A DNA stretch of 64,000 nucleotides from Acidobacteriota bacterium (GCA_038040455.1 JBBPIH010000006.1:47176-111175), one strand, 5' to 3'; shown: positions 11,973-48,126, counted from the stretch's first letter. Translations and numbers: made by a program. Notes: generated by a model from the letters alone, not told the origin.

Positions 11973-12060
11973 GGGTCCCTCCTATAGAAAGTCTGTAGGA
12001 GGATAAAGGCTTGACCTATAGGATGTCAATAGGAGCGAGAAAGAATTTCGTCAAAAATGT

Positions 12061-12340
12061 CCGATGGAGCTTCAGTTTCATCCAAACGGGCAAGCATGAG
12101 TCTAGATACCATCGGGCTTCAGCCGATGGAGCTTCAACTTCAACCTAACAACACGGATTGCCCCCCAGGGCTACGTCGGCTCCAGACCGGGTATCCTGCG
12201 AGCCAGCGTGATGGTTAGGTCGAAACTGAGGCTCCATCGGCTAAAGCCCGATGGTATCCGAATTCAGACCGACGATCATTAGGTCGAAACTGAAGCTCCA
12301 TCGGCTAAAGCCCGATGGTATCCAGCGAGCCATCACAAGA
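12061..12340. repeat. composite repeat: ~42-bp unit ggtcgaaactgaRgctccatcggctaaagcccgatggtatcc present twice as direct copies (12218-12260, 12281-12323) and in inverted or partial form at 12061-12140; each unit contains the internal hairpin ccatcgg...ccgatgg
   Basis: Read directly. It occupies the gap between padR and the next ADOP, and is followed by a CCCTGAA-type half-arm at 12340-12378. Confidence 0.7.
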
Positions 12341-12378
12341 AACCCTGAACCCGGAACCCTGAACCCGGAACTCCGACT

Positions 12379-14805: not shown

Positions 14806-14823
14806 AGTTCCTCCGAAGTATCG

Positions 14824-14980
14824 GTTCCGGGTTCAGGGTTCCGAGTTCAAGGTTCAGGGTTTCTGGTTTTTCGTTTCTAGTTTTTGGTCTCTGATCTCGG
14901 CTTCTGGTTTCCGACTCCTACTTTCGTAACCAAGAACCAGAAACCAGAAACCAAAAACCCTGAACCTAACCCCGGAACCG
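14824..14980. repeat. heptamer-run palindrome (left arm GGTTCAG/GGTTTCT runs 14824-14888; right arm AGAAACC/CTGAACC runs 14929-14980)
   Basis: Read directly. Fills the gap between the stop of ADOP 14986..17403 and the RBS of ADOP 12379..14805. Confidence 0.75.
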
Positions 14981-14985
14981 CTAAG

Positions 14986-17403
14986 CTATTCGTATCTGAG
15001 CGCTACCATCGGGTCCACCTTCGTTGCTCGCCGCGCCGGGAGATAGCAAGCCACCAGCGCGACTGCCGTCAGCAACAGCGCGATGAGAACAAACGTTGTC
15101 GGATCAGCCGGGCTCACGCCGAACAGCAAACTCTTCAGCCATCGCGTGAGCGCAAACGACGCCAACATTCCCAGTGCGAGCCCTGCCAGCACCAGCCGCA
15201 TACTCTGTCCGATCATTAAGCTGAAAACATCCAGCTTCTGCGCGCCGAGCGCTATCCGAATGCCCAACTCGCGGGTGCGCTGGGTTACGGCATAGCTCAT
15301 GATGCCGTAGATGCCGACTGCTGCCAGCAGCAAGGCCACCCCTGCGAACACTCCCAGCAGCCAGGTACTAAACCGGCGCGGCGCAATATGACGCGCAAGC
15401 TGGCTTTCCAATGTAGCGGCGTCATCAGTCGGAACGTTCGGATTAATCGCCCGCACTTCACCTTTGATTGCGGCAATCAAGCTCTCAGGGTCAACACCCG
15501 CGCTTCGCACCGCAACCGTTGAGCGCGGAAGCGGCGAGCGACCGAAAGACGTGTAGATTTTGATACGTCCCAATGTCTCAGAGCCGTAGGTGCGCACGTC
15601 ACCGGCAATGCCGATGATCTCGATGGGTGTGGCGCTGTCGTATTTGATATGCTTGCCGAGCGCATCTCCTTGGGGCCAGAACCGGTTCGCCAGTTGTTCA
15701 TCAACGAGCATCACCGGAGCGCCCTGGGCTATTTCTTGCTCCGTGAAACTTCGACCCTGTTTGATAGGAATGCCCATGGTCTTGAAGTAGTCCGAAGTGA
15801 TGATGCCCCAGTCCACATTGATCAGTTCGCCGGCATTGATCTTCAGATACTCGCCATTGATTTCCGGATTGATGTCGTTCTGCCAGCCTGGCTCGAATCC
15901 GGGCCTGTCGTTTAGCACACAGACGGCTTCTACGCCGGGCATTGCGGCAAGACGCTCGAGCAATTGCGAATGAAACACCATCAACTGCGCGCGGCTCGGA
16001 TAAGCTTCGCGAGGCAGGATCTGCATCGTCACGACATTCTGTGGGTTGAAACCGGGATCGGAAGCGAGCAAGCGCGCCAGGCTCTTGATGAGCAATCCCG
16101 CGCCGGCAAGCAGCACCATAGCCAGCGCGACTTCAGCGACGACGAAAACGTTCCGCAAGCGTCCGCTGCGCGCGTCACTAGATGACCTGCCGCCCTCTTT
16201 CAGCGCTTCGTGCAGATCGGTCTTCGTGCTTTGCCACGCCGGTGCGATGCCGAAGATGATGCCCGTCAGCATCGACAGCCCCAGCGTGAAGCCGAGTACA
16301 TTCCAGCCGATCGTTACGCTTGCCAGACGCGGCAAATCGGGCGGCGCGAATTTCACGATCAGATCAACGCCCCAACTCGCCAACAACAAACCGATGCCAC
16401 CGCCTAAGACGGACATCATCACGCTTTCTATCAGGAGTTGTCGAAGCAGACGCCAGCGGCTCGCGCCCAACGCCGCTCGAATCGCGAATTCTTTCTGCCT
16501 CGTCGCCGCTCGCGCCAGCAACAGGTTGGCTACGTTGGCGCATGCAATCAACAGCACCACCCCGACCGCCGCAAACAGCAGCAGCAGCGATCGTCGGGTG
16601 TCACCTACAATGCTCTCTTGCAAGGTCACCATCTGGATAGTGTTCCCGCCGTTGGTCATCGGATGTTCGGCGATCAGTTGCTGTTCGATGGATTTCATTT
16701 CGGCGCGCGCCTGGTCGATGGTTACACCGGGCTTCAATCGCCCGATTACGTTGCCGACGATGCGGTTGTCACGATTGAACCACCCGCTCGGGGGTAGCTC
16801 CGCATACTGTTCCGTCGGCACCCACAACGCAGGTCCCTGCTCCTGAAACTCCTGTGGCATCACTCCGACGACAGTGAAGGGCTTATTGTCGAGCGTGATC
16901 GTCCCGCCCACGACCTCGGGATCACCGCCGAATTGTGCCCGCCAGAAAGCATGGCTGAGCATGGTCACGAATGGCGCGCCGAACCTATCCTGCTCGCTGA
17001 TGAAGTCGCGTCCGAGCATTGGCCGCACGCCCATAACGCGAAAGTAATCCGCCGTGATCATCCGAGCGCTGAGCGACTGCGCTTCGCCGTCTCCGGTCAG
17101 CGTCATCTGCCAGCCGCGAATAGTGGCCATCGCTTCGAATGATTGACTGCGCGAACGCCAGTCAAGAAAGTTCGGATACGAAACCCATCGTGACGGAATC
17201 TGTTCGTGCCGCTCCGTGAGCCAGACCAGCCGGTCAGCTTCGGGATAAGGCAGCGAGCGCAAGAGGACGGCGTTCACAACGCTGAAGATTGACGTGTTTG
17301 CTCCGATGCCGAGCGCCAGTGTGATGACGGCAATCAACGTGAAGCCTGGGCTCTTGACGAGCACTCGCGAGCCGTAGCGCAGGTCTTGAAGTAGTGCTTG
17401 CAT
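14986..17403 (-). CDS. ADOP-family permease (805 aa)
   Basis: [22 protein letters not shown]...; C-terminal [15 protein letters not shown]. Confidence 0.9.
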   Translation of the reverse strand: MQALLQDLRYGSRVLVKSPGFTLIAVITLALGIGANTSIFSVVNAVLLRSLPYPEADRLVWLTERHEQIPSRWVSYPNFLDWRSRSQSFEAMATIRGWQMTLTGDGEAQSLSARMITADYFRVMGVRPMLGRDFISEQDRFGAPFVTMLSHAFWRAQFGGDPEVVGGTITLDNKPFTVVGVMPQEFQEQGPALWVPTEQYAELPPSGWFNRDNRIVGNVIGRLKPGVTIDQARAEMKSIEQQLIAEHPMTNGGNTIQMVTLQESIVGDTRRSLLLLFAAVGVVLLIACANVANLLLARAATRQKEFAIRAALGASRWRLLRQLLIESVMMSVLGGGIGLLLASWGVDLIVKFAPPDLPRLASVTIGWNVLGFTLGLSMLTGIIFGIAPAWQSTKTDLHEALKEGGRSSSDARSGRLRNVFVVAEVALAMVLLAGAGLLIKSLARLLASDPGFNPQNVVTMQILPREAYPSRAQLMVFHSQLLERLAAMPGVEAVCVLNDRPGFEPGWQNDINPEINGEYLKINAGELINVDWGIITSDYFKTMGIPIKQGRSFTEQEIAQGAPVMLVDEQLANRFWPQGDALGKHIKYDSATPIEIIGIAGDVRTYGSETLGRIKIYTSFGRSPLPRSTVAVRSAGVDPESLIAAIKGEVRAINPNVPTDDAATLESQLARHIAPRRFSTWLLGVFAGVALLLAAVGIYGIMSYAVTQRTRELGIRIALGAQKLDVFSLMIGQSMRLVLAGLALGMLASFALTRWLKSLLFGVSPADPTTFVLIALLLTAVALVACYLPARRATKVDPMVALRYE

Positions 17404-17420
17404 GCTTTCTCCCGAATCGT

Positions 17421-17606
17421 GATGAACCTCTACGGGCGTTCCTCCCTGGGCGTGCCGCCTTACTCAAGCTCGCGGTCGGGAAGGGTGGCTTGCCCCCGCT
17501 CTCGCGCAGAAGCAATGTATCTCCTTGAAGCGGAGCGGGCGCAAGCCACCCTTCCCGACCGCGAGCCTGTGGATCTACCGGGTGCCCGCGGAGGGACACC
17601 CTGCAG
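17421..17606. repeat. REP-like imperfect palindrome, family copy C (gatgaacctctacgggcgttcctccc ... cgcggagggacaccctgcagg), enclosing a 34-bp near-perfect inverted repeat (17468-17501 / 17531-17564)
   Basis: Read directly. Shares its ends with copies at 47999-48110 and 57872-57966. Confidence 0.65.
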
Positions 17607-17713
17607 GCTTAGTGGACATCATTTCGGACATCATTTCAGCCTCGCCTTTCTTTTGGCTCGTAAGCTGGGGCATTAGGATCGTAAGGCTTGCCCGGCTCGA
17701 TTCGTTTCCCATT

Positions 17714-17800
17714 CTGGATTTTAGATTTTGGGGTTTTGGATGGGATTGGCCTGTCAGTGCCTGGTGACAGAAAATCCAAAATCTCAAATCCCCAATCCTG
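17714..17800. repeat. heptamer-run palindrome, GGATTTT type, with a central ctgtcag...ctgacag hairpin
   Basis: Read directly. Immediately follows the stop of ADOP 17802.. Confidence 0.7.
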
Positions 17801-17801
17801 G

Positions 17802-20222
<2,421 letters not shown>

Positions 20223-20228
20223 TAGCTC

Positions 20229-20300
20229 CCTGTCGAAGATTGAAGATCGAGTATGAAAGATGGAGGGTCGAGGGTGCTCTATCCTCTGTCTTCTATCCTC
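20229..20300. repeat. heptamer-run palindrome, GAAGATT/GAGGATC type
   Basis: cgaagattgaagatcgag ... ctatcctctgtcttctatcctcgttcttc, read directly. Confidence 0.6.
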
Positions 20301-20305
20301 GTTCT

Positions 20306-22780
<2,475 letters not shown>

Positions 22781-22794
22781 CAGATCACCTTCCG

Positions 22795-23010
22795 TTTCTG
22801 GTTTCCCTTTTAGTTTCTGGTTTCTAGTGGCTTGTACCAGCCATTTCGCTAGCGATTGATGGGTACGAAATCCGTGCTAATCCGTCAAACCCGCGTCATC
22901 CGTGGTCTATTAGTTCGTAGCATTGCCCAGCGCCGCATAGACCACGGATGACACTGATTCGACGGATTTGCGCGGATAAAAAATCCAACCAGAAACCAGA
23001 AACCACAAAC
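22795..23010. repeat. nested palindrome: outer GTTTCTG-type heptamer arms (22795-22830 / 22986-23010) around inner inverted repeats gtcatccgtggtctat/atagaccacggatgac and aatccgtc/gacggatt
   Basis: Read directly. Confidence 0.7.
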
Positions 23011-23794
23011 CTATTCGTACCTCAGTGCCACCATCGGATCGACCTTCGTCGCCCGGCGAGCAGGCACAAAGCAAGCTCCCAGAGCCACGACGGCCAGTAT
23101 CACCGAAACGCTCACAAATGTTTTCGGGTCGGTCGCGCTCACTCCGTAGAGCAGCCCCGAGATGACCCGGGTTAAGGCAAAAGAGCCCGCGAGCCCAAAC
23201 GCTATCCCGATCAAGACCAGTTTCAACCCGTGCCCGACAATCATCCTCAGCACTTCTGAGGACCGTATAGCTGTCACTATTAAGAGTAAGTTTGTGACCT
23301 ATGATACCGGGGTCGTGACCGAATCGTCGCTCCCACAATCCGTAGCTCAACACCACCACTCGCTCGCTGTCAGGTCTGTCATCCTCCGGAAGCAATGTTC
23401 GCCCAAGCGTGGCACTGACACCGAGCATCTGAAAAGCGTTTGCTGAAATCCTCACGCCCTGCATGCGTTCGGGCTCGTCGGTCCCCGTCAGGCTCGCGCC
23501 CCAGTTGGCAAAGGCCGCTATCTGCTCGAGCGTTTCGCTGCGGTCTCGATAATCAATAAAGTCGGGAATTGAGAAAAAGGCTTTGTCTCTATCAACCCGA
23601 GTTGACCATATCCAGACCAGCTTTTGCGAATTCTCGAATGGCAGCTTGCGAATCAGCACGGCGTTGACCAGGCTGAAGATCGCCGTGTTTGCGCCTATAC
23701 CTATGGCCAGCGTGAGCGTTGCCACAAGGGTGAATGTTGGTCTCTTCGCCAGCATTCGAATGCTGTAGCGCATGTCTTGAAGCAGAGTTTCCAT
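23011..23794 (-). pseudogene. ADOP permease pseudogene with a ~1.6-kb internal deletion (N-terminal ~178 codons and C-terminal 88 codons retained in different frames)
   Basis: 23260-23794 encodes METLLQDMRYSIRMLAKRPTFT...[13 protein letters not shown], then nonsense. 23011-23277 encodes ...[17 protein letters not shown]...[15 protein letters not shown] in another frame. Confidence 0.8.
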
Positions 23795-23817
23795 TTAGCC
23801 TCCGAAGTAATCTGTTC

Positions 23818-23903
23818 AGAGTTCCGAGTTCAGAGGCAGAATTCAGAGTGGCTTCCCACTATCCAACCCCGAACCACGAACCCGGAACTCTGAACCTAGC
23901 GCC
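23818..23903. repeat. heptamer-run palindrome, GTTCAGA/GTTCCGA type
   Basis: ctgttcagagttccgagttcagagg ... ccaaccccgaaccacgaacccggaactctgaacc, read directly. Confidence 0.65.
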
Positions 23904-23905
23904 AT

Positions 23906-25423
23906 CTACCGGTTCTCCGTTCGCGCGTACGAAGCCGCCATTCCGTCGAGCATCTTGCGAAGCTCCTCTTCGGTGAACCATCGCCCTTGAGCCATCACCC
24001 CAGCCCGGCGCGATGCATTGCTCACGTCCGTGAGCGGATTTCCTTCGACCAGAATCAGGTCGGCCCGTTTTCCAACAGACACAGTTCCGAACTTATCCGT
24101 TCTCAAAAACTCGGCGGCGTTTGCGGTCGCGCTTCGGAGCGACTCATAAGGCGTCAACCCGGCGGCCACCATCTCGCGCAATTCGTCGTGGAGCGAGAAC
24201 CCCGGCACAACCGAGGGCACCGGAGTATCGGTTCCCGCCAACAATTTCACTCCTGCATCGTGCAGGCCTTTGACAAGCTTGCTGAGCAAATCAGCTCGGG
24301 CGAAGAAGCCCTTCGCAGTCTCTTTCTTGAACCGGCGAACGTAGTCGTTATTCTCTTTCGCGAATCTGGTGGCAATCCACGGGGGCAGGTATTTCATCTC
24401 GGGTCTCTTCAAAACAGCATCAATGTCGTCGACTTGACGAGCGATGCCACTGTAGACCGTCAACGTGGGGCTCACCCAGATCCCGGCTTTGGCTGTGGCC
24501 TCGGCAACGGACGGGATGCGGCTCGCCTGGTCTGCAATCCAACGCAGCTGAGCCTCTTGACTCGAATTGGCGGGCGAGGTCACGGGCCTGAAAAAGAAGT
24601 AGGCGTTCAGATACTCCTCGGCGTGAGCGATCGCATCTTGTTTTTCCTCGAACGCGGGTTCGATCCCAAGATTGCGGGGCAAGTGGCCTATGACACGCAT
24701 GCCTTCACGGCGGGCGACCTCAAAGACTTTATGATAAGCCTCGCGCGAGAAGTCGCCGTGAATTTTGATAATGTCGTAGCCTGCCCGCTTCTGCGCGACG
24801 ACCGCGCGCTCAACTTCTTCCGGCGTCGGAGTAGAGACCGGGGCATTGGAGATGAACCCCCCGCTGGTGTAGATCGCCGGGCCAAACATCTCGCCTCGCG
24901 CGACCCGCTCGCGAAGCTGGAGATGATTAGGCGCGCCGAAGAGATTCAGAACCGTGGTCACACCGTTCGCAACAAACAGTCGCAGCATCGCTGCGTTGGC
25001 CTGTTCATTGAAGACCTCGAAATGAACATGCATGTCGGCGAGTCCGGGCATCAGGTACTTGCCGCGCCCCTCAATTCTCAGCGCTCCTCGCGGAACTTTG
25101 ACCTGTTCCACTGACCCCATCGCGGCTATCAACCCGTCCCTTACGATGACGGTTTGCCCGGTCAGCACTCGTTGTTCGTCCATTGGGACGACGTTCACGT
25201 TGACGAAGGCGACGACTTGCTTTTGCCGGGCCTGGAGTTGCTTGACCTCATCAGAGACTTGAGGTTCGGTTGCCGGGTTGCGAGCCTCGCTCGCGAAGTA
25301 CAGGAAAACGACGGGCAGAGCGCCGATACCAAACACCAACGCAAACAGACCAACGCCCATCACCACAAGTCGCTTGAAGCGAATCCGTCGAGTGTTGCGA
25401 GGTTTCCTCAGCGGAATGTCCAT
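23906..25423 (-). CDS. membrane-anchored amidohydrolase-family metal-dependent hydrolase (505 aa)
   Basis: N-terminal TM helix, then an Amidohydro fold with the metal-binding HVHFEVF motif, HGD..., HLPRNLG and an Asp-containing C-terminal strand. Confidence 0.8.
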   Translation of the reverse strand: MDIPLRKPRNTRRIRFKRLVVMGVGLFALVFGIGALPVVFLYFASEARNPATEPQVSDEVKQLQARQKQVVAFVNVNVVPMDEQRVLTGQTVIVRDGLIAAMGSVEQVKVPRGALRIEGRGKYLMPGLADMHVHFEVFNEQANAAMLRLFVANGVTTVLNLFGAPNHLQLRERVARGEMFGPAIYTSGGFISNAPVSTPTPEEVERAVVAQKRAGYDIIKIHGDFSREAYHKVFEVARREGMRVIGHLPRNLGIEPAFEEKQDAIAHAEEYLNAYFFFRPVTSPANSSQEAQLRWIADQASRIPSVAEATAKAGIWVSPTLTVYSGIARQVDDIDAVLKRPEMKYLPPWIATRFAKENNDYVRRFKKETAKGFFARADLLSKLVKGLHDAGVKLLAGTDTPVPSVVPGFSLHDELREMVAAGLTPYESLRSATANAAEFLRTDKFGTVSVGKRADLILVEGNPLTDVSNASRRAGVMAQGRWFTEEELRKMLDGMAASYARTENR

Positions 25424-25432
25424 GGATAATTT

Positions 25433-25585
25433 CAGTTCCGGGTTCAGGGTTTAGGGTTCAGGGTTCAGGGTTCCGGGTTCAGGGTTCGTGGTTCCGAGTT
25501 GACGGTAGAAGATTCTGAACTATGAACTCTGAACCTCAACCCTGAACCCGGAACCCTGAACCCTGAACCCGGAACCCGGAACCCT
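25433..25585. repeat. heptamer-run palindrome, GGTTCAG type (~9 heptamers per arm)
   Basis: ttcagttccgggttcagggtttagggttcagggttcagggttccgggttcagggttcgtggttccgag ... ctgaactatgaactctgaacctcaaccctgaacccggaaccctgaaccctgaacccggaacccggaacc, read directly. This one lies upstream of the amidohydrolase rather than of an ADOP. Confidence 0.75.
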
Positions 25586-25586
25586 T

Positions 25587-28022: not shown

Positions 28023-28183
28023 CGTGTCTCCTCTCTCAATTGCGGATCATTCGGAGCGGACTCCGATTATCACGCCCGTCTATTTCACAGCGAGAATTTC
28101 TTTGCCTTGGCTCCACTGTTTTTCATAACTTCTCTCATCAACTGATCGGGGTCATTCGCACCGGCCGCTGACAGGAGTTCGTA

Positions 28184-28259
28184 GTCCCGCCTTCCGGCGG
28201 AAGTTCGTAATTGCCCGTGCCGTAAGCCTATATCACAAACTTCCGCCGGAAGGCGGGAC
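28184..28259. repeat. perfect 22-bp inverted repeat gtcccgccttccggcggaagtt / aacttccgccggaaggcgggac; each arm is self-complementary
   Basis: Read directly. It lies upstream of ADOP 25587..28022 and is built like the 7518-7583 element. Confidence 0.7.
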
Positions 28260-28275
28260 CACAAACTCTTCTCCG

Positions 28276-29604: not shown

Positions 29605-29612
29605 CCCTCCTA

Positions 29613-30758: not shown

Positions 30759-30774
30759 AATCTCCGCCTGTATG

Positions 30775-30925
30775 AGGGTTCAGGATTCCGGGTTCCGGGT
30801 TTCCGGGTTCCGAGTTTCTGGTTTCTGGTTTCTAGTTTCTGGTTACGAGACTGGACAGGGCCAAACCAGAAACCCTGAACTCGGACTCTGAACCCTGAAC
30901 TCTGAGCCCACGAACCCGGAACCCG
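30775..30925. repeat. heptamer-run palindrome, GGTTCAG/GGTTTCT type
   Basis: Read directly. The left arm is near-identical to 33358-33415. Confidence 0.75.
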
Positions 30926-30928
30926 GGT

Positions 30929-33343: not shown

Positions 33344-33357
33344 AGTTTCCTCCGGAA

Positions 33358-33415
33358 TGAGGGTTCAGGGTTCAGGGTTCCGAGTTTCTGGTTTCTGGTT
33401 TCTAGTTTCTGGTTT
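33358..33415. repeat. heptamer-run half-element (left arm only: gggttcagggttcagggttccgagtttctggtttctggtttctagtttctggttt)
   Basis: Read directly. No complementary arm nearby; it abuts an ADOP 5' remnant. Confidence 0.65.
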
Positions 33416-33511
33416 GCCCAAGGCGAGTGTGAGGATGGCAATCAATGAGAAGCCAGGTTTCCTGAGCAACATTCGCGAACCGTAGCGCAGGTCTTGGAGT
33501 AGTGCTTCCAT
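33416..33511 (-). pseudogene. orphan ADOP 5' fragment (32 codons: [32 protein letters not shown])
   Basis: The reverse-complement translation matches ADOP TM1 exactly, then stops by running into the heptamer arm. Confidence 0.7.
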
Positions 33512-33540
33512 AATCAACTCTCCGTTTCAAAGTCTTTGCT

Positions 33541-33678
33541 TCACGTTCGAAAAACGCTGAATACTGTCCCAGCAACGCCGATTGCGATCGCCATCGCCAG
33601 TACGGCAACAACGGTGACTTCGGGACTCTTGCGCAGAAGCCGCAAACCAAAACGAATGTCAGACATCCATCCGGACAT
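33541..33678 (-). pseudogene. orphan 5' fragment of a long-form ADOP-like permease (45 codons: MSGWMSDIRFGLRLLRKSPEVTVVAVLAMAIAIGVAGTVFSVFRT*)
   Basis: Resembles the N-terminal TM1 region of the 881-aa permease type. It is preceded by its own GAAGATT palindrome. Confidence 0.55.
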
Positions 33679-33701
33679 TTTGATCCTTTCACCGGCACAT
33701 T

Positions 33702-33800
33702 CGAAGATTGAAGATTGAAGATTGAGGATCGAAGGACTGCCGGTCGCCGCTATCTTCTATCGTCCATCTTCTATCCTCGATCCTCGATCCTCGATCCTCG
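33702..33800. repeat. heptamer-run palindrome, GAAGATT/GAGGATC type (3-4 heptamers per arm)
   Basis: cgaagattgaagattgaagattgaggatcgaagga ... ctatcttctatcgtccatcttctatcctcgatcctcgatcctcgatcctcg, read directly. Confidence 0.75.
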
Positions 33801-33804
33801 TTCG

Positions 33805-36240
33805 TCACTGGTATCTCAGCGCCTCCATCGGATCTACCTTCGTCGCCCGTCGACCAGGCACGAAACAGGCTCCGAGAGCCACTCCTACGAGTAGCAGCGA
33901 AATGGCCAGGAACGTCAAAGGATCGCTAGGGCTCACGCCGTAGAGAAAGCTCGAGATCAAACGTGTGGCGATGAAGGCCAGCGCAAGCCCGATCGTTACG
34001 CCCATTGAAACGATGACCAGGCCCTCTCGAAGAACGAGCTTCATTACATCCCGCGTGTCCGCTCCGAGCGCCATGCGGATTCCGAACTCGTGTGTACGCT
34101 GAGCGACCGAAAACGACATCACGCCGTAAACCCCCACCGCCGCCAGCGCCAGAGCCAAAACAGCGAAGACTGCAAGCAACAGCATCGTGAAACGGGGTTG
34201 AGAGACCGAGTTTGACAGGACCTGCTCCATCGTTTGAATCCGGGCGACCGGCAAGTCTTTATCTATGGTTTGAACGACGCTCCTGATAGGCCCGGCGAGC
34301 GTTATTGGACCAGAAGAGGCGCGCGCAACTACGGTCATCGAGCGCCATACCCCGAGCGCCGTAACGTAAGCGTTCTGAGAGTGCAGGAAGTACATCTCCG
34401 GTCTCGGTCTGATGTCCAGGCCCTGGTCCTTTGTGTCTTTTGTTATTCCCACTATGGTGAACAAGGGACTGCCGGGCACGCCCAAATCTATCCGCTTGCC
34501 GACCGGGTCTTCATCAGGCCAGAAGCTGGTCATAGCATCATTGATTATGACCACGGCGGGCGCATCTTCCCGGTCTGACTCCATGAAGTAACGACCCTTT
34601 AGAAGTGGAATACCCATCGCGCAGAAATAATCCCGGCTTATCATTCGATATTCGGCGTTCTGAGCCACATCATCGGACAAGCGAGGTTTTCCCTCGATCT
34701 CAAATGACGCATTGGAATTGAATCCGCTTAAAGGAAGCACTGTTACCGTGCCTACAGACTGCACTCCCGGCAATGATTCCGCTCTTTCCAGCAATTGCTT
34801 GTAAAAAGCATCGACCTGTTGACGCTGCGGATACCGGGATTGTGGCAAGGCGATTTGGGCGGTCAGCACATTCTTTGGATCGAAGCCGGCGTCTACATTG
34901 AGCAGCCGCCAGAAGCTCTTAATCATCAGGCCCGCGCCTATGAGAAGCACGAGTGAGAGAGCTATCTCAGATACTACGAGGACCCGGCGAGTGTGGCGGC
35001 GTCCCCGATCGCCCGTACTCCCCCTACCCTCTTTAAAGGATGCGTGCAGGTCCATCTTTGAAGATTGTAGTCCGGGCACTAATCCAAACATTATTCCCGC
35101 AAGAACCGAGATCGCGAGGGTGAAGATGAGCACCGTGGCATCCACGCCGACTTCGCTGGTTCGGGGGATGGTTGCGGGCGCAATAGCAAGCAAAGCCTCA
35201 ACACCCCAGAATGCCAGCAGCAGTCCCATCGCTCCTCCCATCAAACTCAAGAGCACGCTCTCGGTCAGGAGTTGCTGAATGATGCGGCTGCGGCCAGCGC
35301 CGAGGGCGATGCGAATGGCAATCTCTTTTTGCCTCGCTTCAGCCCGGGCAAGGAGCAGATTGGCGACGTTGGCGCAGGCGATCAGCAGCACGAATCCGAT
35401 TGCCGCAAGCAGGACGAGAAGAGCCGGGCGAATGTCTCCTACGATCAATTCATGCAGCGGAATCAAGTTCACGCTCTGCGTTGAATTCACGCCTTCCGGG
35501 TATCGCTTTCGATACTCTTCCGCAAGCTGAGCGGCAAGAGTGTTCATCCCCACGCGAGCTTGCTCCAGCGTCACATTCGATCTAAGGCGCGCGATTGCAT
35601 TGTAACTGCGGTCTCTGGGACTCACGTTAGCGCGATCAAGCCCCAGAGGAAGCCATAGCTGGACATCTTGTTTATCGAAGTAGAAGCCGCCAGGCATAAC
35701 TCCGATGATTGTGCGGCTGAGGCCGTTGAGGCTCACTTGTTGACCGATGATATTTGGATCAGAGCCGAAGCGCCGTTGCCAGAGGCCATAGCTCAACACG
35801 ACGACTTGAGCCGGCCCCGGCTTATCGTCTTCAGCGGTGAAGGCGCGGCCCAGCGCGGGTTGAACGCCGACGGAAGGAAAGAAACCGGCAGACGCCCACG
35901 TAGCGGCAACGCGCTCAGGCTCGCCGCTGCCTGTGAGGCTCGTGGCCCCTGTTGCAAATGCGGCGACCTCTTCAAAGACGTGATTCTGTTCTCGGAAGTC
36001 GAAGAATTCGAGGTCTGTAAGCCCCAGCGTGTGCCCTCCCCTGGACGGGTGCCATATCGTCACTATCCGGTCAGGGTTTGGATAGGGTAAAGGACGAAGC
36101 AGCACGCCGTTGACGACACTGAAGATCGCAGTGTTGGCGCCAATGCCTAAAGTCAAAGCGAGCACGGCCACGGCAGTGAAGCCAGGTCTCTTGAGCAGCA
36201 TCCGAACGCCATAGCGAATGTCCTGAATTATGTTTTCCAT
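33805..36240 (-). CDS. ADOP-family permease (811 aa)
   Basis: MENIIQDIRYGVRMLLKRPGFT...; C-terminal [15 protein letters not shown]. Confidence 0.9.
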   Translation of the reverse strand: MENIIQDIRYGVRMLLKRPGFTAVAVLALTLGIGANTAIFSVVNGVLLRPLPYPNPDRIVTIWHPSRGGHTLGLTDLEFFDFREQNHVFEEVAAFATGATSLTGSGEPERVAATWASAGFFPSVGVQPALGRAFTAEDDKPGPAQVVVLSYGLWQRRFGSDPNIIGQQVSLNGLSRTIIGVMPGGFYFDKQDVQLWLPLGLDRANVSPRDRSYNAIARLRSNVTLEQARVGMNTLAAQLAEEYRKRYPEGVNSTQSVNLIPLHELIVGDIRPALLVLLAAIGFVLLIACANVANLLLARAEARQKEIAIRIALGAGRSRIIQQLLTESVLLSLMGGAMGLLLAFWGVEALLAIAPATIPRTSEVGVDATVLIFTLAISVLAGIMFGLVPGLQSSKMDLHASFKEGRGSTGDRGRRHTRRVLVVSEIALSLVLLIGAGLMIKSFWRLLNVDAGFDPKNVLTAQIALPQSRYPQRQQVDAFYKQLLERAESLPGVQSVGTVTVLPLSGFNSNASFEIEGKPRLSDDVAQNAEYRMISRDYFCAMGIPLLKGRYFMESDREDAPAVVIINDAMTSFWPDEDPVGKRIDLGVPGSPLFTIVGITKDTKDQGLDIRPRPEMYFLHSQNAYVTALGVWRSMTVVARASSGPITLAGPIRSVVQTIDKDLPVARIQTMEQVLSNSVSQPRFTMLLLAVFAVLALALAAVGVYGVMSFSVAQRTHEFGIRMALGADTRDVMKLVLREGLVIVSMGVTIGLALAFIATRLISSFLYGVSPSDPLTFLAISLLLVGVALGACFVPGRRATKVDPMEALRYQ

Positions 36241-36259
36241 ATCTCCTCCGATTTAAGAC

Positions 36260-36335
36260 TGAGATCGAGAACCGAGGATCGAAGATGGAAGATACCGCCG
36301 CGAGGAGCCTTCCGATACTCGATCCTCAATCTTCG
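36260..36335. repeat. heptamer-run palindrome, GAGATCG/GAGGATC type
   Basis: gagatcgagaaccgaggatcgaagatggaagata ... tccgatactcgatcctcaatcttcgatcttc, read directly. Confidence 0.65.
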
Positions 36336-36346
36336 ATCTTCGTGGT

Positions 36347-38788
36347 TTACTCGTATCTTAACGCGACCATCGGATCCACTTTTGTCGCGCGGCGCGCCGG
36401 CAGCCAGCAGGCCAATAGCGCAACGAACAACAGCAACACTGCAATCAACGCAAAAGTCACGGGGTCGGTCGCGCTCACGCCGTACAGCAAACTCTTCACA
36501 AGCCGCGCCGCCGCGAGCGAGGCCAGCAAGCCGATTCCCACGCCTGCGAGCGCCATGCTCAGACCTTGGCTTACGACCAGCCGCACCACATCAAGTCTCT
36601 CCGCGCCCAGCGCCATGCGGATACCAATCTCACGCGTGCGCTGACTAACGGTAAACGCCAGCATGCTGTATAGCCCGAGCATGCTCAAAAAGAGTGCCAG
36701 CAACCCGGCATAGGTCAGCACCGCGCTCGTCAGCAGTACGGGCATGTAGACGGCATTCACCTGCTGTGTCAGCGGGACGTCCTCGCTGATCGGGACGTTC
36801 GGGTCTAAAGCCACAATCGCTCGCCGCAAGAGCGGGAGCATTGTCTGCGGCTCGCCGGCAACGCGCACGACGAAACGCGGGTCGATTTGCGGCCTGGTAT
36901 TGTTCTGCAAATACGGCAGGTAAAGAAACGGCTGCGGCGATTCGAGCGCGTTGAGCAATTGCGCATCTTTGCTGACGCCTACCACCTGGTATGGCTGGTC
37001 GCGCAGGATCAAAGCGCGCTCCAGCGCCGAGACTTCCGGCCACAGGCGGCGGGCCAGCGTTTCGTTGATGACTGTCACACGCGGAGCACCTGGACGGTCT
37101 CCCTCGTTGAACTCACGTCCTTCGAGCAACGGGATCTTCAAAGTCTCGCAGAAGCGAGGGGCAATTTCTTGATACTCCACCTGAAGCTGCTCTTCTGCCG
37201 TCAGTCGCGGTTCTTCCGGCAGCCTTACCCGCACTCTTCCGCCACTCTGCCAGGCAAGGCCGTTGCCTTTTGCCAGACTTACCGACTGCACACCTGGAAG
37301 AGCTTCGAGGCGCTCCACCACTTCGCGCGTGAACGCCTGGGCTTTCTCCGGGTTGTAGTTCATCAGAGCCGGTCTCAGACGAAGCGCCGCTACATGTTGT
37401 GGATCGAAGTTTGCGCCACCGCGGACGTGAGACTCACTGCGAACCAGTAAGCCCGCCACGACCAGCAGAGACAGCGAAAGCGCCACCTGTCCGACAACCA
37501 GCGCGCCTCGCAGTCGATGCTGGCGCGGACTCGGTGAGATACCTTCCTTCAAATCGCGAACCAGGTCCTGTCGCGTCGCCTGGAGAGCCGGCAGCAACCC
37601 GAACAACAACCCCGTGAAAAGCGTGAGCGCCAGCGCATAGACCAACCCACGCGGACTCACGCTCAGATCGTAGTAACGCTGCAGGCTGCTATGGTTCGTG
37701 GTGTAGAAGGTTGCCAGTAGGTCCTTGGCCCAGAGCGAGATCAGCAGCCCCAATGCGCCGCCACCGAACGCCAGCAACAGGCTTTCCGTCAAGAACTGCC
37801 GCACCAGCCGAGCGCGCCCGGCGCCTATGCACAACCGGATCGCGATTTCTTTGCGCCGCGCTGCGCCGCGCACCAGCAGCAGACTCGCGACATTGGCACA
37901 CGCGATCAACAACAGCAGACCGGTGACAGCCATCAGCAGTTGCATCTGGTAGCGGAATCCTTCTCGCTCATTCCACCTGACACCAAGAGCGGGCCGAAGC
38001 AAAATTCCGCGTCCCTTTTCTGCAGGAGAGGTCGACCCGAGCTGATCGGATAGCACGCTCAGCTCGGCCTGCGCATCGGCCAACGTTCGACCTGGAGCAA
38101 GCCGGCCGAGGAGCGACAGCGGACGGCAATCCGCTTCGGTGATGGCGTCGCACGACCGGTAACCCAGCCGTAGCATCATCGTCGGAATCCAAAACTCGTT
38201 CGGAAACCCCGCCAACACACCTCGAAAACCTGGCGGTGCGACGCCGATGATCTTGCAGGCGCTGCCGTTGAGGACAAGTTCTTTTCCCAACACCCCTGGA
38301 TCACCGCCGAAGCGTCCCTCCCACATTCGGTGGCTGATCACCACCACCGCGTCACGGTCGGGCACAGCATCCTCCTCAGGCAGAAAGAAGCGCCCCAGGC
38401 GCGGCTGAATTCCAAGCGCGGAAAAATAATTTGCCGAGACGACTGCCCCATTCGCTACCTGCGAATCGCCCTCGGCAAATATGTTCACAGGTGAGGTGGA
38501 GTAATGTGCTACCAAAGCTTCGAACGACTGACAGTGATCCCGGTAATGCACATATGCCGGATAAGCATACCCTTCGTTCCATCGGCCATTGCGCGTGGCT
38601 TCGACGGTCACTAACCGCTCGGGCTCGCGCGCGGGCAAGGGACGTAAGAACATCGTATCGACGAAGCTGAAGATCGTCAGGTTCGCGCCGATGCCCAGCG
38701 CAAGCGTCAGGACGGCGATCAACGTGAAGCCGGGTTGCTTGAGCAGCATTCGCGCGCCGTAACGCAGGTCTTGCCACACAGTATTCAT
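36347..38788 (-). CDS. ADOP-family permease (813 aa)
   Basis: MNTVWQDLRYGARMLLKQPGFT...; C-terminal [15 protein letters not shown]. Its start overlaps the next gene's stop by 4 nt. Confidence 0.9.
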   Translation of the reverse strand: MNTVWQDLRYGARMLLKQPGFTLIAVLTLALGIGANLTIFSFVDTMFLRPLPAREPERLVTVEATRNGRWNEGYAYPAYVHYRDHCQSFEALVAHYSTSPVNIFAEGDSQVANGAVVSANYFSALGIQPRLGRFFLPEEDAVPDRDAVVVISHRMWEGRFGGDPGVLGKELVLNGSACKIIGVAPPGFRGVLAGFPNEFWIPTMMLRLGYRSCDAITEADCRPLSLLGRLAPGRTLADAQAELSVLSDQLGSTSPAEKGRGILLRPALGVRWNEREGFRYQMQLLMAVTGLLLLIACANVASLLLVRGAARRKEIAIRLCIGAGRARLVRQFLTESLLLAFGGGALGLLISLWAKDLLATFYTTNHSSLQRYYDLSVSPRGLVYALALTLFTGLLFGLLPALQATRQDLVRDLKEGISPSPRQHRLRGALVVGQVALSLSLLVVAGLLVRSESHVRGGANFDPQHVAALRLRPALMNYNPEKAQAFTREVVERLEALPGVQSVSLAKGNGLAWQSGGRVRVRLPEEPRLTAEEQLQVEYQEIAPRFCETLKIPLLEGREFNEGDRPGAPRVTVINETLARRLWPEVSALERALILRDQPYQVVGVSKDAQLLNALESPQPFLYLPYLQNNTRPQIDPRFVVRVAGEPQTMLPLLRRAIVALDPNVPISEDVPLTQQVNAVYMPVLLTSAVLTYAGLLALFLSMLGLYSMLAFTVSQRTREIGIRMALGAERLDVVRLVVSQGLSMALAGVGIGLLASLAAARLVKSLLYGVSATDPVTFALIAVLLLFVALLACWLPARRATKVDPMVALRYE

Positions 38789-41289: not shown

Positions 41290-41305
41290 TATTCCTCCCG
41301 TTATC

Positions 41306-41548
41306 GGTTCAGGGTTCAGGGTTCAGGGTTCCGGGTTCAGGGTTCAGGGTTCAGGGTTCAGGGTTCAGGGTTCAGGGTTCCGAGTTCAGGGTTCAGTATT
41401 CAGCGATTTAAATTGTTCGCCAATCATCGTCAGAGATCCTTTAGACACCTTCACACAATGAGCAATCAACCCTCAACTCGAAACCCGGAACCCGGAACCC
41501 TGAACCCTGAACCCTGAACCCGAAACCCTGAACCCGAAACCCTGAACC
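41306..41548. repeat. expanded heptamer-run palindrome: ~14 tandem GGTTCAG/GGTTCCG units (41306-41405) facing ~11 CCCTGAA/CCCGGAA units (41468-41548)
   Basis: Read directly. This is the largest copy. Confidence 0.8.
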
Positions 41549-43978
41549 CTATTCATATCGCAGCGCCACCAACGGGTCCACCTTCGCCGCTCGCCGCGCC
41601 GGAACGAAGCAGGCTCCCAGAGCCACTCCTGCCAGCAGGATAGAAATTCCCAGGAACGTAATCGGGTCTGTCGCGCTCACGCCGTACAACAGACTAGTCA
41701 TCAGATGAGTCAAGGCAAACGATGCGATTAACCCGACGACGATGCCGATCGCAACTAAAATCATCCCCTGGCCGACAACCATCTTCAAAACATCGCTCGC
41801 CTTCGCCCCGAGCGCCATTCGAATCCCGATTTCAGGCGTGCGCTGTGTGACCGAATAACTCATGACGCCGTATATTCCCGCTGCCGACAAAATCAGTGCG
41901 ATGCTCCCAAAGATGCCAAGCAACACGAGGTTGAATCGCGGTTGCGTCACCGCATCCGTGACGATGTTTTCCATGCTTCGTATCTCAGCCACAGGTTGTT
42001 CTCTATCCACTTCCTGCACAGATTCTCGAACAGCCGCGGCCAGGCTCGCCGGCTCGAGGGCGGTGCGAATGACGAAAGACATCCCTGCAAAAGGGTCCTG
42101 CATGTATGAGGTGTAAATGTCCGGCAACGGTTCAGTGTTCAACTCGATGTTTCGGACATTTGCCACTACGCCGACAATCTCAAACCATATCGGTTGACCG
42201 TTATTTGAACCTCCCATGTTGATTCGCTTGCCGATAGGGTTCTCGCCCGCGAAGTCACGTTCGGCGGCCACTTGATTGATAAGAACAACCAGGGGCACCG
42301 ACACATTGTCGCGTTCAGTGAGGGCGCGGCCTTGCACGATCGGTATGTCCATGGCTCGAAAGTAGTCAGGGCTGACGTTGCGGTAGTTAACTCCGGGCCA
42401 CTGGTCGGGGGGAACCTGCGGACGACCTTCAATTCTGATTCCGGTGGTTGGGCCTTTTGAAAGGGGAAGCGTATTAATCATTCCGACCGAGTCAACGCCT
42501 CCAATAGCGCTTATGCGTTCGATTGCCTGTCTGTAAAAAGAGATATACTGGGCGTCTTCCGTGAATCTCGCGCCCGACGGACTCAGCCTCATGGTCAGCA
42601 CTCGCTGTGAATTGAAGCCTTTATTGACCGATTGCAACTCCAGAAAACTGCGGAACAGCAACCCCGCCCCGATAAGCAACACGAAACAGAGTGCCACTTC
42701 GGACACGACCAGAAGATTCCGAAGCCGGTTGCGCCGACCGCCGCCCGACGTGCCGCGCGAGCTCTCTTTGAGTGATTCGTGAATGTCGGTGGTCGAGACC
42801 TGCAAAGCCGGCGCAAGCCCGAATACAATACCCGTAAGCAATGACACTAAAAGGGTGAAACCAAGCACGGCGTAATCCAGGTTGATGTCCTGAAGCCGCG
42901 GAAAATCTTTCGGCAGCAGCGTTGTCATTACGTCGATGCCCCACAGCGCCAGCAGCAATCCGAGCGCGCCGCCCAACAGCGCGAGCATAGAACTCTCCGT
43001 AAGCAGTTGACGAATTACGCGCAATCGAGACGCGCCCAACGCCGCGCGAATCGCCATCTCCTTTTGACGTGAAGTGGCGCGCGCGAGCAATAAATTCGCC
43101 ACGTTCGCGCACGCTATCAGCAGCACAAAACAGACTGCTCCCAGCAGCAGCCACAACACGTTGCTGGTGTCTCCGACCAGGTAGGTGTGGAGCGAGACAA
43201 CCCTGTTGAAGCGGTTGTTGTTTGTTTCGGGGTACTGCTCTCTGAGGCGCGCAGTTATGACCTCCATTTCGCTCTTCGCTTGCGAAAGCGGCACTCCGGG
43301 TTTGAGCAATCCAACAGTGCTCAAAAAGCCGAAGCCTCGCACTCGGGTGACATCCATCTGGTCATTAATGGCAGGAGCGAGTCTCAGCGGAGGAAGCCAT
43401 ACATCTGTCTTATCGGGATATTGAAAGCCTGCGGGTGCAATGCCTGCGACCGTGTAGCTTTTGCCATCCAGCGTAATTGAGTTGCCGACCAGCTCAACAC
43501 CGCCGAAGCGGCGCTGCCACAATGCATCGCTTATGACGGCAATAGGCGCATGGCCTGCCTGTTCATCGTCGGGAACGAACAAACGCCCTTGCTGCGCCCG
43601 AATGCCGAATATCTCGAAGAAATTTGCCGAAGTGATCGCGAGGTTGATGCGTTCAGCGTCGTTTGCCCCGGCGAGATTCGAGGTGCGAGTGAGGATCGCC
43701 GCGAGATGTTCGAAAACAGTATTCTGAGCCCGCCAGTCCAGGAAATTTGCGGGAGTAACCAGTCTGCGGCTGCCATCTTTGCCGATCTCTTGAATGGCTA
43801 CAATGCGATCAGCGTCGCGATACGGCAATGGACGTAGAAGCACAGCGTTGACTACGCTGAATATAGCGCTGTTTGCGCCTATTCCCAGGGCTAAGGCGAT
43901 GACGGCGACGGCGCTTAAGGCGGAATTGCGTCGCAGCACTCTCAATCCATATCGAACATCCTGCCAAAATGTTTGCAC
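41549..43978 (-). CDS. ADOP-family permease (809 aa; GTG start)
   Basis: [41 protein letters not shown]...; C-terminal RRAAKVDPLVALRYE. Confidence 0.9.
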   Translation of the reverse strand: MQTFWQDVRYGLRVLRRNSALSAVAVIALALGIGANSAIFSVVNAVLLRPLPYRDADRIVAIQEIGKDGSRRLVTPANFLDWRAQNTVFEHLAAILTRTSNLAGANDAERINLAITSANFFEIFGIRAQQGRLFVPDDEQAGHAPIAVISDALWQRRFGGVELVGNSITLDGKSYTVAGIAPAGFQYPDKTDVWLPPLRLAPAINDQMDVTRVRGFGFLSTVGLLKPGVPLSQAKSEMEVITARLREQYPETNNNRFNRVVSLHTYLVGDTSNVLWLLLGAVCFVLLIACANVANLLLARATSRQKEMAIRAALGASRLRVIRQLLTESSMLALLGGALGLLLALWGIDVMTTLLPKDFPRLQDINLDYAVLGFTLLVSLLTGIVFGLAPALQVSTTDIHESLKESSRGTSGGGRRNRLRNLLVVSEVALCFVLLIGAGLLFRSFLELQSVNKGFNSQRVLTMRLSPSGARFTEDAQYISFYRQAIERISAIGGVDSVGMINTLPLSKGPTTGIRIEGRPQVPPDQWPGVNYRNVSPDYFRAMDIPIVQGRALTERDNVSVPLVVLINQVAAERDFAGENPIGKRINMGGSNNGQPIWFEIVGVVANVRNIELNTEPLPDIYTSYMQDPFAGMSFVIRTALEPASLAAAVRESVQEVDREQPVAEIRSMENIVTDAVTQPRFNLVLLGIFGSIALILSAAGIYGVMSYSVTQRTPEIGIRMALGAKASDVLKMVVGQGMILVAIGIVVGLIASFALTHLMTSLLYGVSATDPITFLGISILLAGVALGACFVPARRAAKVDPLVALRYE

Positions 43979-43995
43979 GATTCCTCCTTCGGATA

Positions 43996-44196
43996 AGGGT
44001 TCACGGTTTCGGGTTCAGGGTTCAGGGTTCACGGTTCAGGGTTTCTGGTTTCTGGGTTTCTGGATTTCTGGTTGCGAAACTGCACATCAGAAACCAGAAG
44101 CCAAGTCGAAAACTAGAACCGAAAACCAGAAGCTAGAAACCAGAAACCAGAAACAAAAGAACCCGGAACCCGGAACCCGGAACCCGGAACTCTGAA
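43996..44196. repeat. heptamer-run palindrome, GGTTCAG + GGTTTCT type, with a central gcgaaactgcacatcag
   Basis: Read directly. Confidence 0.75.
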
Positions 44197-44200
44197 CCTC

Positions 44201-45508: not shown

Positions 45509-45562
45509 ATCGGTAATTCAAATTTCGTCCGGTGACCCCAACAAGGTTAGCCACCGCTTCCT

Positions 45563-47977: not shown

Positions 47978-47998
47978 CGTTATTCCTCAGTCACTGAA

Positions 47999-48110: not shown

Positions 48111-48126
48111 GCGACCGTCGACTCAA

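Follow-up and report, generated by a model that had tools for sequence, protein, structure and literature searches.

Heptanucleotides are described as the most abundant and most over-represented class of long simple sequence repeats (SSRs) in many prokaryotes, a preference ascribed to the stretch of DNA that contacts the polymerase (Mrazek 2007, as cited in PMC4679880 and PMC4692102); the question of their function goes back to the description of the cyanobacterial short tandemly repeated repetitive (STRR) sequences in 1990. Two described systems come closest to the elements reported here. In Xanthomonas campestris and X. axonopodis, each genome has 70-75 inverted pairs of intergenic GGGAATC arrays (Rehm et al. 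2015, PMC4692102). These pairs are convergent, with the G-rich strand first, and are able to form stem-loops; the arrays lie preferentially between open reading frames (ORFs) that are aligned, within 50 bp of a stop codon (G-rich sense) or a start codon (G-rich antisense), are transcribed, and vary in length between related species while their type is kept (PMC4692102). In Haemophilus influenzae hmw1A and hmw2A, an (ATCTTTC)n SSR is one arm of a long hairpin in the 5'-untranslated region (5'-UTR) (Rapun-Araiz et al. 2025, PMC12721329). Cleavage of the hmw1A hairpin by RNase III raises expression, and change in repeat number requires transcription, the hairpin and RNase III (PMC12721329). Here we describe a family of intergenic palindromes with tandem-heptamer arms in a stretch of 64,000 nucleotides from an Acidobacteriota bacterium (GCA_038040455.1, JBBPIH010000006.1:47176-111175; hereafter the window, with positions counted from its first letter), where they occupy the spacers of an array of minus-strand ADOP-family permease genes. 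The initial annotation of the window had recognised no described element of this architecture. The Xanthomonas and H. influenzae systems contradict it on this point: the elements belong to a known kind, the intergenic inverted heptamer SSRs, of which the lineage and the unit families are new.

Less close relatives are also on record. The STRR heptanucleotides of heterocystous cyanobacteria are attributed to polymerase slippage, with 7 nt favoured (Mazel 1990; Mrazek 2007, both as cited in PMC4679880 and PMC4692102). For the TAACTGA repeats, which precede start codons in Beggiatoaceae, cyanobacteria and Bacteroidetes, a post-transcriptional role was proposed (MacGregor 2015, PMC4679880). According to a preprint on Nostoc, heptamer repeats close to start codons have regulatory effects (bioRxiv 10.1101/2022.06.06.494920). 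A literature search for (GGGTTCA)2 in bacteria returned only unrelated primer sequences, and no paper on GGGTTCA-type arrays was found. The mRNA hairpins of repetitive extragenic palindromic (REP) sequences and bacterial interspersed mosaic elements (BIMEs) stabilise upstream cistrons or attenuate transcription; they are often nested or clustered, and REP doublets forming hairpins (REPINs) are mobilised by RAYT transposases. REP, BIME and REPIN sequences, known from enterobacteria and pseudomonads, are palindromes of extragenic DNA (Higgins 1982; Newbury 1987; Espeli 2001; Bertels and Rainey 2011), and the early genes of phage T7 carry intercistronic RNase III hairpins with demonstrated cleavage (Dunn and Studier); both groups may be regarded as functional analogues.

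On its minus strand the window has an array of duplicated permeases of the ADOP family (TIGR03434; scores of 961-1057, the cutoff being 622), interspersed with genes that encode an amidohydrolase, a member of the beta-lactamase family, a BamB/PQQ-like protein and a TPR protein. Eleven spacers in the array, designated A to K by position, are imperfect palindromes in which a 5' arm of 3-14 tandem heptamers is answered by a 3' arm of complementary heptamers; two further loci are half-elements. The left arm consists of G/T-rich units (GGTTCAG, GGTTCCG, GGTTTCT, GAAGATT/GAGGATC or GGATTTT), the loop measures 10-70 nt, and the stems are 30-90 bp long. Tandem Repeats Finder (TRF) reported period-7 arrays of 3-13 copies at every locus that the initial annotation had listed, for example at 14823-14861 (GGTTCAG x5.6), at 25435-25487 (x7.6) with 25515-25585 (CTGAACC x10.3), at 41306-41396 (GGTTCAG x13) with 41468-41550 (AACCCTG x11.9), and at 33703-33734 (GAAGATT x4.6) with 33773-33800 (ATCCTCG x4). 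All 24 period-7 TRF rows with at least three copies between 12 and 48 kb are intergenic, where spacers, computed from ORF coordinates, make up only about 7.6% of the sequence (2,692 of 35,599 nt). The enrichment in intergenic gaps on which the annotation had staked its claim is real and highly non-random, and its view that the arrays are not degraded coding sequence stands. From the upstream stop codon to the arms there are 0-10 nt, and the arms stop 16-19 nt short of the following start codon, i.e., 4-8 nt before a GGAGG-type Shine-Dalgarno sequence, so that the ribosome-binding site (RBS) is left free; the stop-to-RBS placement had been read correctly.

When the minus (sense) strand was folded, the eleven spacers formed long hairpins far more stable than dinucleotide shuffles (z -2.2 to -17.5). 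The fold energies were -84.6 kcal/mol (z -7.9) for A (folded as 14806-14985), -106.9 (z -11.9) for F and -166.4 (z -17.5) for J. Among the other large hairpins, z was -9.0 for D, -4.3 for G and -7.5 for K; with tight coordinates it was -5.7 for E, -4.2 for I, -3.85 for C, -2.9 for H and -2.15 for B. The half-elements gave no hairpin, as expected of single arms. Arms made of repeats can form pairs in many registers, so that covariation counts and alignments carry no information for such hairpins. TRF and folding together bear out the annotation both for the heptamer-armed hairpins at the eleven loci and for the two half-elements. The elements are not assembly artefacts: L001, an independent Logan contig, agrees with the window at 100% identity over E, and four other assemblies carry like elements at orthologous loci.

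All elements are described on the minus strand. A half-element at 12340-12378 has only the G-rich (sense 5') arm, with GTTCCGG/GTTCAGG units (TRF period 7/14), directly after the stop of the ADOP gene 12379-14805; an unrelated large palindrome then follows in the fold of the spacer. Hairpin A (14822-14980) has GGTTCMG units in the outer and GGTTTCT units in the inner part of its arms, and its loop resembles the reverse complement of the GGTTACGA... core. This composite arm, with GGTTCMG outside and GGTTTCT inside, is common to A, G, K and the half-element at 33358. Hairpin B (17706-17801) is made of GGATTTT-type units directly after the stop of ADOP 17802-20222; the same unit family was found at L121 5749-5845 (L numbers denote fetched contigs) and at several metagenome loci. 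Hairpin C (20229-20309) has GAAGATT/GAGGATA-type units, and its 5' arm begins at the stop codon of ADOP 20306-22780. It is intergenic, as the match of ORF 17802-20309 to the ADOP profile sets in only at residue 34. Hairpin D, whose true extent is 22781-23012, has outer GGTTTCT/AGAAACC arms round a nested non-heptamer palindrome and follows the ancestral stop of an ADOP pseudogene. An internal stretch of some 1.7 kb is missing from that pseudogene (ORF 22910-23794), which enters D in a shifted reading frame; its N-terminal ~190 codons and last ~80 codons share 84-85% DNA identity with the 816-aa orthologue in L122. Hairpin E (23808-23903; GTTCAGA/GTTCCGA units) lies between the amidohydrolase stop and the pseudogene start, and hairpin F (25433-25586), with about nine GGTTCAG/GGTTCCG units per arm and a 16-nt loop, lies between an ADOP stop and the amidohydrolase start.

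Hairpin G (30775-30927) has composite arms between an ADOP stop and the start of the beta-lactamase-family gene, and its loop holds a conserved core, TACGAGACTGGACA, at 30844-30857 on the + strand. The half-element at 33358-33415 consists only of the sense 3' (C-rich) arm and is fused directly to a 32-codon ADOP N-terminal remnant (33415-33510), which suggests deletions with one end inside a hairpin. A second such remnant of 45 codons follows at 33510-33690 (MSGWMSDIRFGLRLLRKSPE...*). Hairpin H (33696-33804; GAAGATT/GAGGATC units) stands after the stop of ADOP 33805-36240, and hairpin I (36256-36346; GAAGATC/GAGGATC units) between two ADOP genes. Hairpin J (41305-41549) is the largest, with 13-14 GGTTCAG units against about 12 CTGAACC units and a loop of about 70 nt. 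Hairpin K (43996-44199), with outer GGTTCAS and inner GGTTTCT arms, lies between the stop of the TPR-protein gene and an ADOP start; its loop, TGCGAAACTGCACA, is related to the core. Besides the hairpins, several ADOP genes whose proteins share only 40-50% identity have a recurrent leader, GAT(T)ACTTCGGAGGA, which separates the start codon from the base of the hairpin and in which a CUUCGG tetraloop-like motif adjoins the Shine-Dalgarno sequence (window 14806-14822 and 23795-23813, L119 ~17745-17763, L122 ~11680-11697).

The internal order of the arms was compared with unit shuffles. Variant units are mirrored between the two arms beyond what shuffling produces, the observed score being reached in 0 of 300 shuffles for F and for K, 7 of 300 for A and 10 of 300 for J. 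Arm lengths also correlate across the 146 inverted pairs of all fetched loci (Spearman 0.42, p 1e-7). The mirrored unit order and the correlated lengths indicate that the arms evolve together. A strong polarity was found in the same 146 pairs: G exceeds C in the 5' arm of 137, and C exceeds G in 7. The corresponding counts are 27 and 0 in viral contigs, 164 and 7 overall, and 35 and 6 for units that had not been used as search patterns; all eleven window hairpins have the G-arm first. Since a palindrome is the same on both strands, this polarity is intrinsic to the element, and transcription of either strand brings out the G/U-rich arm first.

The elements extend far beyond the ADOP genes. A scan for three tandem copies of GGTTCMG, with one genome per species, gave at least 117 loci against about 2 expected by chance, distributed over Acidobacteriota, Planctomycetota, Lentisphaerota, Verrucomicrobiota, Desulfobacterota, Chloroflexota, cyanobacteria and others. 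Many of these loci have the same palindrome order of G-arm, loop and C-arm, and only 2 of the 117, among the matches listed, had an ADOP-like gene. The 'bystander' arrays in those that were fetched comprised 160 different heptamer units. The composite junction GGTTCMGRGTTTCTGGTTTCT was found in 103 metagenome loci; only 13 of 104 such sites lie within 400 nt of an ADOP gene, and 89 are in loci without any ADOP gene. Composite hairpins also fill the spacers of rpoB-rpoC (L159 3165-3251), atpD-atpC (L139 490-589) and asd-aspartokinase (L153 9850-10018) in soil metagenome contigs, all six operon genes being confirmed by NCBIfam. These three gene pairs are classically co-transcribed. Specificity for ADOP is ruled out by these counts and operon cases, and the initial description of the palindromes as a feature of the ADOP array had to be given up. 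ADOP is the most frequent shared neighbour family in the fetched loci (21 loci); beside it, only ubiquitous families recur next to the elements there (ABC ATPases, sigma-54 activators, kinases). ORF-orientation statistics over all arrays showed no depletion between divergent genes, the greedy ORF calling being too rough for this figure to be relied on.

In the viral contigs of IMG/VR, a GGGTTCA-type repeat was present in 87 stretches and three control units of the same composition in 17, 18 and 45. The controls too are far above chance; hence heptamer arrays are common generally, GGGTTCA being 2-5 times commoner than the controls, and the idea that GGGTTCA is a uniquely special unit is supported only in part. 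Viral contigs with GGTTCAG arrays (L229-L315, e.g., L246, L249, L290, L229 and L287) carry 396 period-7 runs in 804 kb, about one per 2 kb. Their 27 inverted pairs belong to several unit families (GGAAATT, GGGATTA, TTAGGGC and others). Some of these contigs may be prophages with host flanks.

Relatives of the locus were recovered through the amidohydrolase between E and F, whose orthologues in Blastocatellia metagenome-assembled genomes and soil metagenomes are 81-89% identical. Four of the loci so obtained (L119/L120, L121, L122 and L124) have partly syntenic ADOP arrays, and nearly every spacer in them is a long palindrome, most of them heptamer-armed. The comparison of spacers in relatives gave a divided answer: orthologous spacers hold elements of the same kind, while unit number, unit type and loop orientation differ, or another palindrome altogether is present. 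L119 3150-3335, for instance, counts about 18 units in its 5' arm against about 6 in its 3' arm. At the site that lies upstream of the 824-aa ADOP, L119 has GACTGAG units, L121 and L122 have composite GGTTCMG/GGTTTCT arms, and the window has GGTTTCT units with a nested palindrome; the orthologue of spacer G in L122 (3168-3304) is a G+C-rich palindrome of the same family as window 28023-28275.

The number of units changes rapidly. L119 and L120 differ by one mismatch in 13.6 kb and by a single 14-nt (two-unit) indel in a hairpin arm; between L142 and L171 an array shows a difference of 28 nt. Spacers that are not orthologous share the 14-nt loop core TACGAGACTGGACA at 0-1 mismatch (window 30844, L122 663 and 5843, L121 3264), and loops are inverted between orthologous spacers (window G and L119 3150-3335; L122 599-758 and L121 3207-3339). 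Insertions nested in the elements were seen in window D and in L122 8420-8699, each of them a palindrome, and in L119 16637-17763. At the last site an opposite-strand Uma2-family gene (PF05685) stands between a G-rich and a C-rich arm, and the locus looks like a hairpin split by insertion into its loop. In L124, the G+C-rich non-heptamer palindromes at 7002-7259 and 9681-10000 (CCTGGGAGCGCACGCGGCTCGCGTGC...) have loops with a version of the core with two mismatches (TACGAGACTGCGCA).

The ADOP paralogues of the window share only 36-53% protein identity with one another, and the spacers are near-perfect repeats; the arrays are therefore far younger than the gene duplications or are continually renewed. 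Passive relics that were co-duplicated with the ADOP genes are ruled out by the same comparison, the arrays being up to 92-100% regular. The proposal that the palindromes are recombination substrates driving paralogue expansion obtained partial support, from the unit-number polymorphism, the loop inversion and the half-element fused to an ADOP fragment at 33415.

Signals expected of conventional regulatory elements were then sought. Rfam 15 gave no match at the gathering threshold in the whole window. A sigma-70 promoter scan of 12-48.5 kb found none in the hairpin spacers, most of which are too short for a promoter; the sole good promoter-like site of this region is at 12029-12000 (minus), upstream of the PadR gene. 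A scan of the same region for a stem followed by a U-tract placed no terminator where the hairpins end; inside K it marked one small stem, which is incidental. The lack of room for promoters, together with the rpoBC and atpDC cases, speaks for a place of the hairpins within polycistronic transcripts and against obligatory termination.

We conclude that the elements are very probably microsatellite palindromes, that is, REP/REPIN-like extragenic inverted repeats with tandem-heptamer arms. They would be generated and continually renewed at the DNA level. Slippage at replication would add or remove whole 7-nt units, in keeping with the unit-number changes observed; arm-to-arm templating or recombination would keep the arms complementary and occasionally flip the loop; and other palindromes may insert into the loops. 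Persistence in the spacers of one transcription unit could follow from the folding back of the insert in the transcript, which would leave the upstream stop codon adjacent to the following RBS at the foot of the stem. By analogy with hmw, REP and T7, an intercistronic RNA hairpin with a stem of 30-90 bp would be a likely RNase III substrate or 3'-end protector, whose strength would vary with the number of units; alternatively, it may keep the geometry of translational coupling intact. A 5'-UTR or RNA-processing structure, as the initial annotation had suggested, still appears the most plausible of the functional readings. That the long hairpin does act on expression at the RNA level we put forward tentatively, as an idea somewhat more open to doubt than to belief. 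Taken as a whole, i.e., as an account of origin, persistence and effect together, the explanation seems to us reasonably likely.

Several observations weigh against this account. The strong G-arm-first polarity is not predicted by a purely neutral DNA process. At the same time, neither G-U pairs nor fold energy bear any mark of the sense RNA being under selection: sense and antisense strands fold equally well, with 133 and 126 G-U pairs, and the sense strand is the more stable in 18 of 31 cases (p 0.36). The missing sense-strand G-U bias implies either that the symmetry is maintained in the DNA itself or that the elements are too young to have acquired a bias. The TACGAGACTGGACA core occurs in non-orthologous spacers of different genomes in both orientations, which pure slippage fails to explain; this recurrence may point to copying from one site to another, or to a function at the DNA level. 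Nor does the account cover the moderately raised frequency of GGGTTCA in several phyla and in viruses. No heptamer element was found in the other 32 kb of the window, despite spacers and other palindromes there. Finally, co-transcription and folding in vivo, like RNase III processing and slippage with template switching, are steps that we infer.

The main rival, which is compatible with the microsatellite explanation and which we regard as unlikely in its own right, is that the palindromes are non-autonomous mobile elements, similar to REPINs or to MITEs (miniature transposable elements with inverted repeats), copied by a transposase encoded elsewhere, with the heptamer arms as terminal inverted repeats. 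It would account for the same composite order of units in many unrelated spacers and genomes, for the loop core shared by many spacers even though the flanking ADOP genes are 36-53% identical, for the presence of elements in viral contigs, and for the swap of element type upstream of the 824-aa ADOP. However, neither a target-site duplication nor a fixed terminal motif is visible where A, E, F, G, J and K begin and end; the terminal inverted repeats with a target-site duplication that define a MITE were not found. The window has neither a transposase nor a RAYT-like gene, none is recurrent in the fetched loci, and the families that do recur beside the elements are the ubiquitous ones. The continuous variation in arm length and the whole-unit changes between near-identical strains are the behaviour of microsatellites.

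The clustering of all 13 window elements within a 32-kb ADOP array, each touching an ADOP gene, together with the rank of ADOP as the commonest shared neighbour and the constant distance at which the RBS is spared, might suggest cis-regulatory RNA structures dedicated to ADOP, selected to uncouple the expression of paralogues and possibly under PadR control. We consider this improbable: most elements elsewhere are not near ADOP genes, some being in the rpoBC, atp and asd-aspartokinase operons; some ADOP junctions have no element (the overlapping genes at 38785-38788 and the spacers 45509-45562, 47978-48126 and 51174-51513); orthologous spacers swap element type and loop orientation; and the sense strand shows no G-U bias. 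The PadR gene (TIGR03433, 11637-11972; the sole one of the window) has its own promoter-like site with no heptamers adjoining. The suggestion of PadR sites or of insulators between paralogues has accordingly lost its ground, as the units differ among spacers and elements occur where neither a PadR nor an ADOP gene is near. It may be noted that three more ADOP/MacB-like permeases lie outside the hairpin-rich stretch (7605-10250, 45563-47977 and 48654-51173), and that the spacers adjoining them are without heptamer arrays.

Terminators with weak or absent U-tracts are used by some bacterial lineages. Very stable hairpins directly after stop codons, and the abundance of elements in viral contigs, would fit factor-independent terminators or attenuators of this sort marking each gene end, a reading that appears to us as improbable as dedication to ADOP. 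Intrinsic terminators have stems of 5-14 bp, far below those of the elements, and no hairpin has a T-run after its 3' arm, as the initial annotation had stated on the point of the U-tract. Most spacers have neither the room for a promoter nor a promoter-like match, and full termination within rpoB-rpoC or atpD-atpC would presumably be lethal. The elements appear to be neither terminators, promoters nor PadR sites. Arrays that bind protein, one protomer per heptamer, are very improbable. The strict 7-nt period and the fact that the G/T-rich arm is always the first to be transcribed are consistent with binding by PadR, by single-strand binders of the cold-shock or S1 type, or by nucleoid proteins, and such binders have been proposed for the TAACTGA repeats (PMC4679880) and the Nostoc heptamers (bioRxiv 10.1101/2022.06.06.494920). 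The 160 unit types of the fetched loci, and the at least four in the window alone, are hard to fit to one sequence-specific binder. We know of no PadR operators that are heptamer arrays. Least probable of all, and scarcely to be expected, are G-quadruplex or i-motif elements of the sort suggested for GGGNATC repeats in Xanthomonas and Nostoc. The G3N4 quadruplex pattern is matched by (GGGTTCA)n, and a G-rich arm is present on each strand, convergent as in Xanthomonas (PMC4692102). Yet arms of GGTTTCT, GAAGATT, GAGGATC and GGATTTT, which have no G3 tracts and do not fit the pattern, build the same architecture at the same positions, and a duplex stem should out-compete a quadruplex when the complementary arm is present.

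A bolder extension of the microsatellite explanation, which we hold to be distinctly unlikely, is that the palindromes are functional intercistronic 'valves' across phyla. The polarity and the 7-nt period would then reflect a co-transcriptional mechanism, the number of units would set the strength, and RNase III would feed back on repeat instability, by analogy with H. influenzae hmw. Whether the hairpin forms could possibly be decided by a single-strand binder of the cold-shock or S1 type with a 7-nt footprint, coating the first arm, or else by an arm order that prevents the loading of Rho on the C-rich arm. If this were true, each copy of a tandem paralogue such as ADOP would gain an individually and heritably tunable output, with unit number changing within populations.

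Irrespective of that extension, heptamer repeats in soil Acidobacteria (Blastocatellia), in Planctomycetota and in their viruses are typically long palindromes that fill operon spacers, obey a near-absolute rule of G-rich arm first, and change by whole units between near-identical strains. Many of them within one 32-kb array and its syntenic relatives make a compact system for asking whether such a hairpin is an RNase III site, a stabiliser or a neutral passenger, and why the unit is 7 nt. They also matter for annotation, as hairpin spacers break short-read assemblies (contig L001 ends inside two elements) and create spurious ORF extensions (17802-20309 and 22910-23794).

Other features of the window may be recorded here. 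Several other spacers have very long palindromes without heptamers (28023-28275, 17404-17690, 11973-12378, 7151-7604, 47978-48126 and 57859-58016), examples being GTTCGTAGTCCCGCCTTCCGGCGGAAGT... (stem of ~38 bp, fold z -7.2) and GATACCATCGGGCTTTAGCCGATGGAGC...; there are several families of extragenic palindromes in this genome. A DarT-like single-stranded-DNA ADP-ribosyltransferase (PF14487, ORF 53049-54068) adjoins and overlaps an ORF with an ADP-ribosylglycohydrolase domain (PF03747, 51514-53469); judged by these domains, the pair at 51514-54068 is likely a toxin-antitoxin or defence pair of the DarTG type. At 2774-5273, a BlaI-type repressor (PF03965) is followed by a BlaR1 M56 peptidase fused to HEAT repeats, and the 96-nt tandem repeat reported by TRF at 4850-5158 is the HEAT-repeat coding region.

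Compared with the known systems, the elements resemble REP and REPIN sequences in being dispersed in the spacers of co-directional or convergent genes, in their extragenic and often intra-operon location near stop codons, in their nesting, and in sequence families shared across the genome. REPs, however, are fixed motifs of 20-40 nt and not microsatellites. No single fixed palindrome of that length was found here; the arms are of variable length, belong to several unit families and grow by whole heptamers, and only the 14-nt loop core recurs. Like the T7 RNase III sites, the palindromes would be long intercistronic stem-loops in one polycistronic transcript, separating cistrons and leaving protective 3' hairpins; unlike them, they are built of repeats, the T7 sequences being unique and conserved, and their cleavage is presumed. 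They share with the STRR sequences the tandem 7-nt units in non-coding DNA, including intercistronic spacers; as cited in later papers, the STRRs are described mainly as direct arrays, of which the inverted stop-to-RBS hairpin is not a defining feature. With the TAACTGA repeats they have in common an intergenic heptamer array just upstream of a start codon and one unit common to distant phyla, whereas the TAACTGA sets are nearly all direct (169 direct and 1 inverted), have 2-6 copies and form no hairpins.

The likeness to hmw lies in a heptamer SSR that serves as a hairpin arm just upstream of a gene and changes rapidly in unit number. Here the hairpin and its placement beside the RBS are predicted and transcription is deduced from operon context only; in hmw, the SSR is confined to the left arm, with a fixed G-rich segment as its right-hand partner, and the locus is a single phase-variable virulence gene with its own promoter, in contrast to a dispersed intercistronic family in which cleavage would be expected by analogy. 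The Xanthomonas pairs are matched on more points: at least three tandem 7-nt units in intergenic DNA, a convergent, G-first pair of arms able to form a stem-loop, a position within 50 bp of the stop or start of aligned ORFs, and length variation at a kept site. The elements described here differ from them in unit sequence, in arms of up to 14 units compared with a mode of 4, and in the coexistence of several unit families (some without G3 tracts) with composite arms and a recurrent loop core. Their type is sometimes replaced between relatives, unlike the usual Xanthomonas rule of a kept type, and they are at home in Blastocatellia, other Acidobacteriota, Planctomycetota and viral contigs.

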